DNA of 64,000 nt from a virus, in the IMG/VR virus record IMGVR_UViG_3300049216_000067; one strand, 5' to 3'. The first letter of the stretch is position 1, and the number at the start of each line of letters is the position of its first letter. A model generated the notes under the pieces. It made no database searches. It saw nothing but the letters and a program-made list of their open reading frames with translations, and had not been told where the DNA came from. Positions 39,729 through 44,090 of the stretch are shown piece by piece. The position numbers were made by a program, and so were the translations under genes.

Positions 39729-40250
39729 ATGCCATCATCAAGAAAACCTAATGTAAACGACTCTCGCGAATCCATTCGTTGGTTTGTTCGTATCCTTAAG
39801 AATTTGGATACAAAACAAATAAAACGTGAACAGCTGGGTGAATACGTTAATAGGCCACAACTTGGTAAGCTATGTTGTTATTACTACGATCCAAAAACTA
39901 AGGAAACACTTCCTTATTGGGATAGGTTTCCGTTGGTAATGCCTTTAGATTATCAAGATAACGGCTACATTCTTGGTTTGAACCTACATTATCTTCCACC
40001 AGAAGCCAGAATGGTTTTGTTCGATCAATTGTTTGCTGTTCGTGCTAGAAAAGATCTAACAGTAGAAAATCAAATCCTAATGTCTTACATGGTTTTAAAA
40101 AGAACATCACAATTTCCAGGTTGGAGAGATTGTATCAAGCGTTATATTCCATCTCATATTCAATCTCGTGTTTTAGAAATTGATCCATTGAGTTGGAAGC
40201 TTGCTGTCGCCTTACCCACTCAAATGTTTGTCAAAAAGCGTCCTTGGTAA
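39729..40250 (+). CDS. gp2: DNA end protector gp2
   Basis: YYDPKTKETLPYWDRFPLV, GLNLHYLPP, CIKRY. Confidence 0.92.
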   Translation: MPSSRKPNVNDSRESIRWFVRILKNLDTKQIKREQLGEYVNRPQLGKLCCYYYDPKTKETLPYWDRFPLVMPLDYQDNGYILGLNLHYLPPEARMVLFDQLFAVRARKDLTVENQILMSYMVLKRTSQFPGWRDCIKRYIPSHIQSRVLEIDPLSWKLAVALPTQMFVKKRPW

Positions 40251-40255
40251 ATTAA

Positions 40256-41119
40256 ATGTCATCAAAAAATTTATTCGGTCTTAATGTTAATTTAACCAAC
40301 CAAGGTTTGACTGGATCAGCTAGTCTTAAAATACCTGGCTTGCCTGGTATATCTTTGACTTATCCATTTTTAAGCGGTGTGACTAATCCACCGACGAATC
40401 CTAATTTTAGCATCAATAATTTCATTCAAAATCTAAACCAACACAATGAAACTGCTAGAACCGACAAGTTTGATGTTTTGATTATACCACCAGCAAGTGT
40501 AGCCAATTACGCCGGTCTATCTCCAGCTGCCATTGGTAGAGGATTAAATCTTCAATGTGAAATATCAGAACTTCCTGGTCGTGATATTCAAATGCAAGAA
40601 TATACGATTCACGCATTTGTAAGAAGGGTTCCTCACCAAAATCAATACGGTTCAGCTAATTTTACATTCATTTGTACTGGTGATTTCTGGGAAAAAAGTA
40701 TGTTTGATGCTTGGTTAGATTTGATGGTTCCTGCACAAACAGGTTTAGTAAATTACCCATTAGATGCTAATAACAACCGTAATTACGAGTGTGATATCTA
40801 TTGTAACCAATATGACATGACTGGAACTCAAATTTATCAAGCACAGCTTGTTGATGCTGTGCCGACTTCCGTGTCTGTTTTAAACCAATCATGGGATAAC
40901 GATGCTATCCATCGCTTAAATGTGACGTTTGCTTTCCGTAAGTGGGTTACTGTTGATACTGACTATCAAACAGTTACGACATTTGCTGGATCTAATCCAC
41001 AAGTCCTACCTTCATTAACTAGCGGAATTATCAATACGATTGCTAATTCTCCTATCGTTTCTCAAGATCTTAGAAAAGGAAATGCCGCTCTAAATAGCGC
41101 AATCAAAAAATTAATTTAA
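40256..41119 (+). CDS. Tail-tube-family protein (gp54-like tube initiator)
   Basis: CEISELPGR, EKSMFDAW, LVDAVPTSV..LNQSW...RLNVTFAFRKW. Confidence 0.7.
   Translation: MSSKNLFGLNVNLTNQGLTGSASLKIPGLPGISLTYPFLSGVTNPPTNPNFSINNFIQNLNQHNETARTDKFDVLIIPPASVANYAGLSPAAIGRGLNLQCEISELPGRDIQMQEYTIHAFVRRVPHQNQYGSANFTFICTGDFWEKSMFDAWLDLMVPAQTGLVNYPLDANNNRNYECDIYCNQYDMTGTQIYQAQLVDAVPTSVSVLNQSWDNDAIHRLNVTFAFRKWVTVDTDYQTVTTFAGSNPQVLPSLTSGIINTIANSPIVSQDLRKGNAALNSAIKKLI
41090..41096 (+). promoter_or_regulatory. Late promoter CTAAATA upstream of gp26
   Basis: ctaaata about 30 nt before the gp26 start. Confidence 0.5.
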
Positions 41120-41122
41120 TAG

Positions 41123-41863
41123 GTGATAATTATGAAACTGCCAGAAATGAAGCACCCACAATATGAGGTGCAACTTCTCTCTTATCCTAATCCAATCAAG
41201 TATAGACCATTTACAGTTCGTGAAGAAATGATTCTACGAATGGCTGTTGAAGCTAAAGATTTGGATTCTACTGTCAACGCTTTAAAACAAGTTGTTGAAA
41301 ATTGTCTTGTCTCTGAAATCGATGTTGATAACATGGCCATTGTAGATATGGAAACTTTGTTTCTTCATTTACGTGCTAGATCTATCGGTGAAACAGGTAG
41401 TCAGTTTTTCAAATGTAAGAATGAAGTGACTACTACTGAAGGACAAAAGAAAGAATGTGGAATGTTACTTGAAGTTCCAATCAAATACTTAGAGGTTCCT
41501 GTTATTAACAACAATGCAGAAAGAAACATCAAGTTTAGTGACGATATGGGAGTCACAATGAAGTTTCCTTCTTATAAGGTTGCAAAAGAATTAATAAACC
41601 TAGAACAAGAAGAAGCTGAGGTTACTTTAGTCGCGTTGTGTATTGATAAAATCTTTAGCAGTGAAGAAGTTTTTAATGCTGATGACTGCACCCTAGAAGA
41701 ATTAGTAGAATTCGTATTGAAGCTTCATACCGATAAATATGAAAAAATGAAAGAGTTTTGTTTTAACGCCCCAAAGAATCAGTTAACCGTACAAAAAAAG
41801 TGCGCTAGGTGTGAATATGAGCATTCATTCACCTTGGAGGGTATCCAAGATTTTTTCGGGTAG
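41123..41863 (+). CDS. gp26: Baseplate hub assembly protein gp26 family
   Basis: KYRPFTVREE, FLHLRARSIGE, C-terminal C..C...LEGIQDFF; true start may be ATG 41132. Confidence 0.88.
   Translation: MIIMKLPEMKHPQYEVQLLSYPNPIKYRPFTVREEMILRMAVEAKDLDSTVNALKQVVENCLVSEIDVDNMAIVDMETLFLHLRARSIGETGSQFFKCKNEVTTTEGQKKECGMLLEVPIKYLEVPVINNNAERNIKFSDDMGVTMKFPSYKVAKELINLEQEEAEVTLVALCIDKIFSSEEVFNADDCTLEELVEFVLKLHTDKYEKMKEFCFNAPKNQLTVQKKCARCEYEHSFTLEGIQDFFG
41836..41857 (+). promoter_or_regulatory. Putative -1 programmed ribosomal frameshift signal
   Basis: GGAGG (41836-41840), 10-nt spacer, heptamer T TTT TTC (41851-41857) phased X XXY YYZ in the gp26 frame. Confidence 0.7.
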
Positions 41864-42072
41864 GCTTTGGTAATGATTCGTTAGAGGCTCAGTTTAAACT
41901 GAACTTTAATATGCTGTATCATCAAAAAATTGATTTCACTATGTTTGATGATCGAATGCCTTGGGAAAGGGATGTATACGTTGGTATGCTAATCCGTCAA
42001 GTTGAAGAAGATAATGAGAAAGAAAAGTTGAGGCAACAAGAGAAAAGAGCTAGGGCTAGAACTAGACGTTAA
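41851..42072 (+). CDS. gp51: gp51-like baseplate hub assembly ORF (missed by ORF track; -1 frame relative to gp26)
   Basis: FFRVGFGNDSLEAQFKLNFNMLYHQKIDFTMFDDRMPWERDVYVGML...RTRR*; MPWERxxY signature; first ATG only at 41911. Confidence 0.8.
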   Translation, partial: FFRVGFGNDSLEAQFKLNFNMLYHQKIDFTMFDDRMPWERDVYVGMLIRQVEEDNEKEKLRQQEKRARARTRR

Positions 42073-42074
42073 AA

Positions 42075-44090
42075 ATGGCAGATAAAAAGAAAAATAACTC
42101 AGACTCACCTGGCCAAACAACGTCAGAAACGACCGCTGCTGCTCATGTGATTTTCAATGATCCAGAACAACCTCAGCGTCCGGTTACAGTAGAAAATATC
42201 AACAAAACAGTTAGCCAAGCTGTTGGTAAAGCTTTTGCTGAAAAAGAAAAAGAGGACATGAAAAAGCTGAAGGTTCGTATTAAGAACCCTCCTGCGCCTC
42301 CAACAACACAAAATAAACCAAAACCTAAAATAAAGATTAAACCAGATCAGGTTCCTGTGACTTCTGTTGAGGAAGAAACACAGAAACCTAAGATGAAAAT
42401 TAAGCTAAAGCAGAATAAGCCTGAATCATCTAAAAAGATGAAGATCAGGATGAAGCCTAACGCTCCTGGTGAAACAGAAGAAAAAGTTAACACTCCGACT
42501 GGAATTTCAATAAATCAGTTGGCAGAAAAATTAGCTGATAATATTTCTGATAAAGAAAAACCTAGCAAGCCACGTATCAGGATTAAGCCTGATGCACCCT
42601 ATTGGACAGATACAGAAAAAACTGATCAGAACAAATCTCTTGCTGCTGTAGTTAGTAAAACTGTAGCTAGTAAAGCCGCTGCTCTTGAAAAGAAACCAGA
42701 AACGGTAGAGCCTGTAGCCAATCCACATCGAGAAGACATCCAAGCTTTACAGACGAAGGTTGAAAAATTAGAAGAATCAGCGAAAGTTGAAAAGACTTCA
42801 AAACCAATGACAGAAGAAGAGAAAAAGCAATCAAGGTCTGATGCGGCTGATGCTTTGAAAGCTCTAGGTTTTAAGAAATCTGAATTCCAAGAATTGTTGG
42901 ATAAAGTCGATCATATTGAAGGTACGACTGAAAAGATTCGCATGGTTCTTAAACTTAAGGACAATCCTGCTGCTAAAATTCCTCAAGCAGAAGTTCCGGC
43001 TGCATTAGAAGTTGCCAAAAAAGAAACAAAAGAACCTATTGTAGCTCCTGTAAAAACGGGAACTAAAGAACCAGAAGCACCAAAAGCAACTGAAGTGCCT
43101 AAAGATCCTAACGCTCCTGAACAACTATCATTATTCAAAACTCCTGAAGTGCAAGCTACCAGTCCGTTTGCCGCTGTCACAGTGACACCTAAACCACCAA
43201 CTGTACCTGCACCTAAAAATGTTCAAAACAGTCAATCAGATCAAGATAAAGCAGAAGAAGATAAGAAAAACGCCCAAGAGTTGAAAGACAAGTTGGCTCA
43301 AGCTGAGCGCGACAAACAAATACAGAAGAAGTTGGATGAAATTGAGAAAGCAATTTTTAGCAAAGGTCTTCTTGATAACATTTCTTCTTTGATATCCGGA
43401 ACACTTAAGAGTCTTTTTGGTACTTTACTTGGACCATTACTCAAGCCTTTGATTTCTGCTTTACCTAGCTTAGTAGGTGCTTTGGCTAAATCTGCTCTAC
43501 TAATAGGAGTGGGTGTTGCTGCTTATGAAGGTGCTTCTTACCTATTAAAGAAAGCCGGATATACCGGTGAAACATTAGGTAGTCTTTTTTCTAATCAAGA
43601 TGCTGAAGAACAGAAAAGAGAAAATGCTTGGAACAAATATGGTAACAGGAATGCCATCAATTCTTTGAACACCAAACTTCAAGGTACAGGCTACACTGCT
43701 ATTGGTGCCGGTCAATATAAAGATTCAAAAGGCAATACGGTCAAAAAAGCCGATCTACCACCTGAAGTTCAGCGTAAATTAGACGCTAATGTCGCTAAGG
43801 TTACAAATCCTGCTGAAAGCGTTCCGGCCAAACTTGAAGCACAGGCACCAAAAGCAGCCTCTGACACTGCTTCTCAGAAGCTTACAGACACGCCTACAGC
43901 GGCTCCAACACAAGACGCTCCTGTAGTGCATGTTCACCAAGATAACCGTCAGATAACGGCTCCTGCGCCTCAACCGGTCAATGATGGGGGTGCTTTGATT
44001 CAGGTAAGAAATACTGAGCCATCTGCGTCAGGTATAATAGCAAACCTATTTGACCATCCAGTCACTTATGGTGCTGTTTACCGCATGTAA
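42075..44090 (+). CDS. Probable tape-measure/gp29-like protein
   Basis: 671 aa after gp26/gp51; long hydrophobic Gly/Leu segment LISGTLKSLFGTLLGPLL...IGVGVAAY; low-complexity C-terminus. Confidence 0.6.
   Translation: MADKKKNNSDSPGQTTSETTAAAHVIFNDPEQPQRPVTVENINKTVSQAVGKAFAEKEKEDMKKLKVRIKNPPAPPTTQNKPKPKIKIKPDQVPVTSVEEETQKPKMKIKLKQNKPESSKKMKIRMKPNAPGETEEKVNTPTGISINQLAEKLADNISDKEKPSKPRIRIKPDAPYWTDTEKTDQNKSLAAVVSKTVASKAAALEKKPETVEPVANPHREDIQALQTKVEKLEESAKVEKTSKPMTEEEKKQSRSDAADALKALGFKKSEFQELLDKVDHIEGTTEKIRMVLKLKDNPAAKIPQAEVPAALEVAKKETKEPIVAPVKTGTKEPEAPKATEVPKDPNAPEQLSLFKTPEVQATSPFAAVTVTPKPPTVPAPKNVQNSQSDQDKAEEDKKNAQELKDKLAQAERDKQIQKKLDEIEKAIFSKGLLDNISSLISGTLKSLFGTLLGPLLKPLISALPSLVGALAKSALLIGVGVAAYEGASYLLKKAGYTGETLGSLFSNQDAEEQKRENAWNKYGNRNAINSLNTKLQGTGYTAIGAGQYKDSKGNTVKKADLPPEVQRKLDANVAKVTNPAESVPAKLEAQAPKAASDTASQKLTDTPTAAPTQDAPVVHVHQDNRQITAPAPQPVNDGGALIQVRNTEPSASGIIANLFDHPVTYGAVYRM

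Follow-up and report, generated by a model that had tools for sequence, protein, structure and literature searches.

In the dnaX gene of E. coli (tau/gamma), a Shine-Dalgarno (SD)-like element located ~10 nt upstream of an X_XXY_YYZ heptamer stimulates a -1 shift; a strong stem-loop downstream also contributes in dnaX, where the shift yields a shortened protein. For phage tails, the gpG/gpGT frameshift of lambda was reportedly described by Levin in 1993, and Xu, Hendrix and Duda are said to have found in 2004 that a -1 frameshift is conserved in the tail assembly chaperone genes of long-tailed phages. In lambda G/GT, one gene yields two products, a short one in the zero frame and one extended at its C terminus by the -1 shift; a few codons separate the heptamer (G_GGA_AAG) from the zero-frame stop, the second ORF lacks a dependable start, and the gene is placed after a tube-family gene and before that of a long low-complexity protein. 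According to a review by Atkins et al. (2016, PMC5009743), G-T frameshifting is a conserved trait of long-tailed phages, "except T4". The gp26 and gp51 proteins of T4 are listed as hub assembly chaperones in Table 2 of Leiman et al. (2010, PMC3004832). In T4, gp26 (208 aa) and gp51 (249 aa) are products of separate, divergently transcribed paralogous genes; at the locus characterized here, one gene would serve for both forms.

The locus is located in a 64,000-nucleotide stretch of DNA, hereafter called the window, of an 82-kb IMG/VR virus fragment that is about 47% complete and comes from an uncultured T4-like phage. The 82-kb record contains one PF12322 gene; given that the record is about 47% complete, a second long-form gene may exist elsewhere in the genome. 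The gene order on the + strand is gp2, a gp54-like gene, gp26, a short -1-frame ORF and a 671-aa ORF, and gp32 is on the strand opposite to the gp26 cluster. The order gp2, gp54, gp26, small ORF and large ORF is also annotated in Aeromonas phage PX29 and Vibrio phage ValKK3, and Pelagibacter phage HTVC008M and Sinorhizobium phage phiN3 have one small additional gene ahead of the large ORF. In the PX29, ValKK3 and HTVC008M records, the gene at the position of the window's gp54-like gene is named gp54 or tail tube initiator. The window also has a tRNA gene with a CUA anticodon (amber-reading; tRNA-Pyl according to ARAGORN) at 52581-52657 on the minus strand. The features of the locus are as follows.

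39729-40250, + strand: gp2, DNA end protector
40256-41119, + strand: gp54-like baseplate/tail-tube-family protein, 287 aa (phrog_45 and phrog_3629 "tail tube", E 9e-25)
41132-41863, + strand: gp26 short form, 243 aa, zero frame (PF12322 T4_baseplate, E 2e-46; phrog_150, E 2e-49)
41836-41840, + strand: SD-like GGAGG, read directly, 10 nt upstream of the heptamer
41851-41857, + strand: putative slippery heptamer T_TTT_TTC, in phase X_XXY_YYZ, one codon before the zero-frame stop
41857-42072, + strand: -1 extension, 71 new residues, the "gp51" part of the predicted 313-aa long form (phrog_634, E 3e-15)
41861-41863, + strand: gp26 stop TAG, read directly
41911-41913, + strand: first ATG of the -1 frame, no SD sequence, not conserved
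42075-44090, + strand: 671-aa low-complexity protein, probable tape-measure/gp29 analogue as judged by position, size and composition

The window gp26 matched PF12322 with 158.8 bits, where the curated cut-off is 24.5. Its start is likely ATG 41132, GTG 41123 being less favoured, because AGGTG is present 6 nt upstream of that ATG and homologues open with M-x-LP. With this start the two predicted products have 243 and 313 aa, and the sizes of 246 aa and ~316 aa given in the first-pass annotation were corrected accordingly. The 3' end of gp26 reads GAT TTT TTC GGG TAG (41849-41863). Reading the sequence confirmed other parts of that annotation, namely that T_TTT_TTC at 41851-41857 is in the correct phase, that the -1 frame is open from 41821 without a stop until TAA at 42070-42072, and that this frame has no ATG, GTG or TTG ahead of ATG 41911.

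Judged from the sequence comparisons described below, it is very probable that this locus uses a -1 programmed ribosomal frameshift of the lambda G/GT type, giving the 243-aa gp26 and a 313-aa gp26-51 fusion. Most ribosomes would read T_TTT_TTC GGG TAG and release the 243-aa gp26, and a minority would slip back one base with two tRNA-Phe on TTT and TTC (41851-41857). The slipped ribosomes would then continue in the -1 frame (CGG GTA GGC...) and lengthen the protein by 71 residues, resulting in a 313-aa long form comparable to T4 gp51. Pairing of GGAGG with 16S rRNA 10 nt upstream probably aids the slip, as in dnaX, and the zero-frame stop one codon downstream perhaps aids it too; a conserved downstream RNA structure would not be required. 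Both products would be short and long forms of a hub/tail-tube assembly chaperone, analogous to lambda gpG/gpGT. In the gp26 body common to both, a chaperone-like domain at the N terminus would precede a beta-rich domain that has four cysteines and probably binds zinc; this body would hold the tape-measure-like protein encoded next, and the basic, helical extension would attach the complex to another component of the tail or baseplate.

In this arrangement, the window resembles lambda G/GT in having a single gene for a short zero-frame product and a predicted C-terminally extended -1 product, a heptamer shortly before the zero-frame stop, a second ORF without a dependable start, and a position between a tube-family gene and that of a long low-complexity protein. 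On the other hand, no sequence similarity was found between the window gp26 or -1 ORF and lambda gpG or gpT. The body of the window protein is larger than gpG, with 243 aa and a second, predicted beta-rich domain with four cysteines; the heptamer is U_UUU_UUC instead of G_GGA_AAG; and, unlike lambda G/GT, the window has an upstream SD-like element and its gp26 belongs to a family previously known only as T4 "baseplate hub" proteins. The window shares with dnaX an SD-like GGAGG 10 nt upstream of an X_XXY_YYZ heptamer, but differs from it in that no significant downstream structure was found and the shift would lengthen the protein.

We next compared the junction among 80 IMG/VR loci whose gp26 was 30-53% identical to the window gp26. 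An in-phase T_TTT_TT(C/T/A) was present 0-1 codons ahead of the gp26 stop in all 80 loci, its last base being C in 58, T in 20 and A in 2. The first-pass annotation had named variable junction phase and conserved independent starts as findings that would speak against a slip; phase and heptamer were constant in 80/80, and starts were not conserved. Wherever the zero and -1 frames were open together, the overlap being as short as 10 nt, the heptamer was inside it every time. The P-site codon was TTT in 80/80, although elsewhere in these genes TTT accounts for 76% of Phe codons, and the codon preceding it was NNT in 80/80, in seven types (AGT, GAT, AAT, TCT, GCT, GGT and CAT). The A-site codon was TTC in 58 of the 80 loci, compared with 24% of Phe codons gene-wide. 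The gp26 stop itself varied (TAA 38, TAG 30, TGA 12). With the amino acids fixed and codon use taken from the whole genes, the chance of finding NNT + TTT in every lineage was ~1e-15 with 49 clusters at 70% identity and 1e-6 with 23 clusters at 50% identity, values that are to be read as orders of magnitude only because the lineages are partly dependent.

The same junction was observed in cultured phages. An in-phase T_TTT_TTY was found 0-2 codons ahead of the gp26 stop in 10 of 13 cultured single-gene phages, and the heptamer with the -1 phase was seen in cyanophages, Aeromonas PX29, Vibrio ValKK3, Stenotrophomonas Moby, Sinorhizobium phiN3, Ochrobactrum OC and Pseudomonas pf16. Vibrio KVP40-type phages and the cyanophages S-BM3 and S-MbCM100 share this junction. 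Cyanophage junctions read AGT TTT TTC GCG TAG, GAT TTT TTC GGC TAG, AAT TTT TTC GGA TAG and AGT TTT TTC GCG TAA, and the gp51 region was unannotated in three of the four cyanophage records whose junctions were read. A tblastn search with the -1 peptide matched 528 phage records, and the matches begin 13 nt ahead of the gp26 stop. None of the 15 annotated single-gene records that we opened joins gp26 and the -1 ORF, and full-text literature searches found no publication reporting a slip at gp26/gp51. Separately, a homologous -1-frame ORF with the motif MPWHL follows gp26 at L092:3283-3468, L097:3295-3456 and L098:3052-3258, which belong to Ackermannviridae (PhaxI, PP35) and Vibrio phage K393. 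Their junctions read GAG ATT TTC ATT TAA or CTT TTC AAG TAA and have no X_XXY_YYZ heptamer, so that only a single-tRNA T_TTC slip would be possible there.

To the 5' side of the heptamer, the spacing of exactly 10 nt between GGAGG and the heptamer was as the first-pass annotation had it, and the upstream SD-like stimulator proposed there gained support from codon use. In 64/80 loci, GGAG, GAGG or AGGA occurred within the 20 nt that precede the heptamer, versus 9% of in-gene windows, and GAGG ended exactly 10 nt upstream of the heptamer in 49/80. Since the motif overlaps conserved Glu-Gly codons, part of this conservation is at the protein level. The Glu codon at the site was, however, GAG in 50 of 70 cases against 23% gene-wide (8-fold enriched; Fisher p 6e-17), a bias which argues for selection on RNA as well as protein. 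To the 3' side, no significant stem-loop was found downstream of the heptamer in the window (z -0.08 to -0.89). A dnaX-type stem-loop 5-9 nt past the heptamer was absent; the nearest hairpin in the window begins 22 nt past the heptamer, and the related locus L007 does not conserve it. Over 77 relatives, the mean z of the downstream structure was -0.85, with z < -2 in 18/77, indicating a weak tendency. No sigma-70-like promoter or T4 late promoter (TATAAATA) beyond chance was detected before the -1 ORF. Note that a 6-bp hairpin (CTTGGA / TCCAAG) with a terminator-like score adjoins the T run at 41833-41857; it was rejected as a terminator, its stem being lost in the nearest relative.

The residues encoded in the -1 frame were examined as well. 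PHROG 634, annotated as "baseplate hub assembly catalyst" (gp51), covers residues 11-75 of the 83-residue -1 stretch, so that similarity to the gp51 family sets in with the two Phe encoded by the heptamer, and the first start codon comes 20 codons later. The family-like residues that the first-pass annotation had seen upstream of ATG 41911 are thus real; the -1-frame peptide ahead of the first start codon is VGFGNDSLEAQFK. Among relatives, 75 complete extensions gave an alignment that is gap-free from the two Phe of the heptamer across the conserved core, with the consensus FFR....H..L.NYY..NFALMQHHKYSLTELENMIPWERE.YV. Mean column identity was 51% for the extension (71 distinct sequences) and 47% for gp26 itself. 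The extension of the window carries gp51-type features, namely a P-W/F-E-R motif, helical character and a basic tail. Modelled alone, it was predicted to form three helices (pLDDT 78), and a start at ATG 41911 would truncate the first of them. For the fusion of the window, the predicted junction-spanning tryptic peptide is ...SFTLEGIQDFFR.

We then weighed other ways in which the two reading frames could be expressed. One is that two separate proteins are made, with gp51 starting independently at ATG 41911 in the window, or by coupling or re-initiation near the gp26 stop in relatives, and no fusion. This corresponds to the annotation in those records where gp51 is annotated at all, although several cyanophage records could not annotate it. 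ATG 41911 is unlikely to be a real start because no SD sequence precedes it and it lacks conservation; in the nearest relative (L007/L010, 53% identity), CTT replaces it and the first start is found 10 codons later. Over the 20 codons before ATG 41911, 19 of 60 nucleotides differ between the window and this relative, yet 15 of 20 -1-frame residues are kept (6 synonymous and 5 non-synonymous changes), and the zero and +1 frames of these codons contain stops in both. Judged by this pattern, the 20 codons, which encode part of the predicted helix 1, are under purifying selection in the -1 frame, a constraint that runs against a start downstream of them. In the 75 relatives, the first -1-frame start was anywhere between upstream of the slip and 30 codons past it. 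It was within 6 codons of the slip in 28/75, so that a separately initiated short gp51 is possible in those lineages, and at least 7 codons downstream in 41/75. Start positions scatter from -61 to +92 nt relative to the gp26 stop over the 80 loci, whereas the heptamer is invariant, and the nucleotide constraint on NNT TTT TTY would have no role if gp51 were initiated on its own. We therefore regard separate initiation as improbable.

A second way to the same fusion would be transcriptional slippage, with RNA polymerase inserting an extra U at the T run. Since the product is identical for both slippage mechanisms, sequence alone cannot fully separate them, and all 80 loci have 6-8 consecutive T. 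For polymerase slippage to be efficient, runs of about 8-9 or longer are usually required, whereas the T run is just 6 in 60 of the 80 loci. The A-site codon is TTC in 58/80 despite its gene-wide frequency of 24%, and together with the short run this suggests that selection keeps the run short and phased, not long. In addition, GAGG at the dnaX-like spacing of 10 nt and the synonymous bias at this site fit a ribosomal event only, making slippage by the polymerase a poor candidate. Homopolymer runs are error-prone in some sequencing chemistries, and an assembly indel in the T run, or decay of a single long gene into a pseudogene, would also produce two frames. However, the phase, the heptamer and the nearby zero-frame stop recur in 80 independent metagenome assemblies, and the same junction is found in 10 cultured phage genomes from many laboratories, so that an artefact or decay is highly improbable. 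We assign an equally slight chance to stop-codon readthrough, in which the CUA-anticodon tRNA (52581-52657, minus strand) would read the TAG of gp26. The tRNA is present and the stop is indeed TAG, but 6 codons further on the zero frame has another TAG, with a TGA close behind. Readthrough remains in this frame with its early stops, and therefore never reaches the gp51 frame; moreover, the gp26 stop is TAA or TGA in 50 of the 80 relatives. As a separate point, gp26 extended by 6 residues to the second TAG via the amber-reading tRNA is a conceivable side product.

Having favoured the -1 ribosomal frameshift, we examined how its predicted products relate to the T4 proteins. A BLASTP comparison of T4 gp51 with the window gp26 and with the -1 ORF gave no significant match, and profile methods alone showed the relation. 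In T4, as in the window, PF12322 extends over gp26 (E 9e-64), and it also covers residues 1-201 of gp51 (E 4e-52); residues 147-246 of T4 gp51 match phrog_634 (E 1e-23), as does the -1 ORF of the window. By these profile matches, T4 gp51 is a gp26-like PF12322 domain carrying the same extension as that encoded by the -1 ORF. We also built a profile from six standalone gp51 proteins (T4, 44RR, RB16, Octan, Pm5461 and RB49). The conceptual -1 fusion of the window matched this profile as a single domain over residues 23-295, across the junction, with 23.5 bits, compared with 8.8 bits for gp26 alone and 8.7 bits for the +1 fusion.

The heptamer was found in the gp26 gene of none of the seven phages with a separate gene 51; the T4 gene reads GAG TTC TTT GAG TTA CTA TAA. 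Such phages are a natural control, as they have their own long-form gene and have not kept the slippery nucleotides; this two-gene control rests on 7 phages because T4 gp26 fetched only 7 near-identical loci and a broad alignment could not seed the search. An unrooted tree had a 98/95 branch that separated all single-gene forms from T4-type gp26 and gp51, which lay together. This topology fits one duplication on the T4 side, the polarity not being fixed in an unrooted tree. In the record of Acinetobacter phage Octan (L110, MT409116), gp26 and gp51 are both labelled "tape measure protein assembly chaperone", with no frameshift noted.

To obtain a view of the fold, we modelled the window gp26 with AlphaFold2 (pLDDT 94.9, pTM 0.87). 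Neither Foldseek with this model against the PDB nor a gp26 profile search against PDB sequences gave a match. An exhaustive VIA-align search had as its top rows, all matching residues 1-95, 3FGX (Z 7.6), 2OB9 (Z 7.5) and 3KLU (Z 7.0), Z values of 7-7.6 being in the range reachable by unrelated models and below the safe level of VIA-align. The 2OB9 entry is the HK97 tail assembly chaperone, of which 84 residues were aligned, and 3KLU is YqbN. The next unrelated row had Z 4.8, and PLE ORF19 (5IR0), a chaperone similar to 2OB9 (PMC12987554), had Z 4.6. These Z values are suggestive of a gp26 N-terminal domain that resembles the HK97 tail assembly chaperone, which would be a further likeness between the window gp26 and tail assembly chaperones. 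The analogy to G/GT proposed in the first-pass annotation is thereby strengthened, suggestively, by this chaperone-like fold match as well as by the domain make-up of T4 gp51. For the four-cysteine beta-rich half (residues 87-239, 41390-41850), five weak rows of Hsp40/DnaJ peptide-binding domains were seen at Z 3.1-4.0. That the C-terminal half might be a chaperone-like substrate-binding domain is a weak lead from modelling.

Downstream of the -1 ORF, the ATG of the 671-aa gene follows 2 nt past the stop (TAA AA ATG, 42070-42077) and has no SD sequence. Its protein is of low complexity and includes a hydrophobic Gly-rich segment. Positional counterparts in the relatives that we read have 568-741 aa, and in HTVC008M a comparable large downstream protein is annotated "putative tail tape measure". 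No homology to T4 gp29 was detected by BLASTP or hhalign. The ESM Atlas gave a weak lead to PF25671 at 0.87, but PF25671 had no match in the 671-aa protein or in nine positional counterparts. By analogy with G/GT, we lean towards a role of the gp26 pair as chaperones of the tape measure, with a good deal of reservation.

The junction itself is tight, in that the distance from the -1 ORF stop to the start of the following long ORF is between -32 and +10 nt in 70/70 loci. An SD-like tetramer precedes the downstream gene in 21/70 and is absent in 49/70, including the window. The 2-nt junction in the window, together with this tightness, suggests termination-reinitiation coupling to frameshifted ribosomes. 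Since most of these genes have no SD sequence of their own and unslipped ribosomes end ~210 nt upstream, the frameshift could conceivably, beyond setting the ratio of short to long chaperone, also supply most of the translation of the tape-measure-like protein, with slipped ribosomes terminating and re-initiating, which would tie one tape measure to one long-form chaperone as they are synthesized; we consider this extension of the model doubtful.

If the -1 frameshift is real, T4 makes from genes 26 and 51 the short and long forms that its relatives make from one gene, so that the tail-chaperone frameshift would not really be missing from the T4 group. Most T4-related phages, including marine cyanophages, a pelagiphage, and vibrio, rhizobial and pseudomonad phages, would use the frameshift, and T4 itself would have swapped it for two paralogous genes. 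This would give gp26 and gp51 a testable function, and would allow annotation to be corrected in hundreds of genomes in which gp51 is mis-started or missing. The family would then be a natural example of frameshifting and gene duplication solving one stoichiometry problem.
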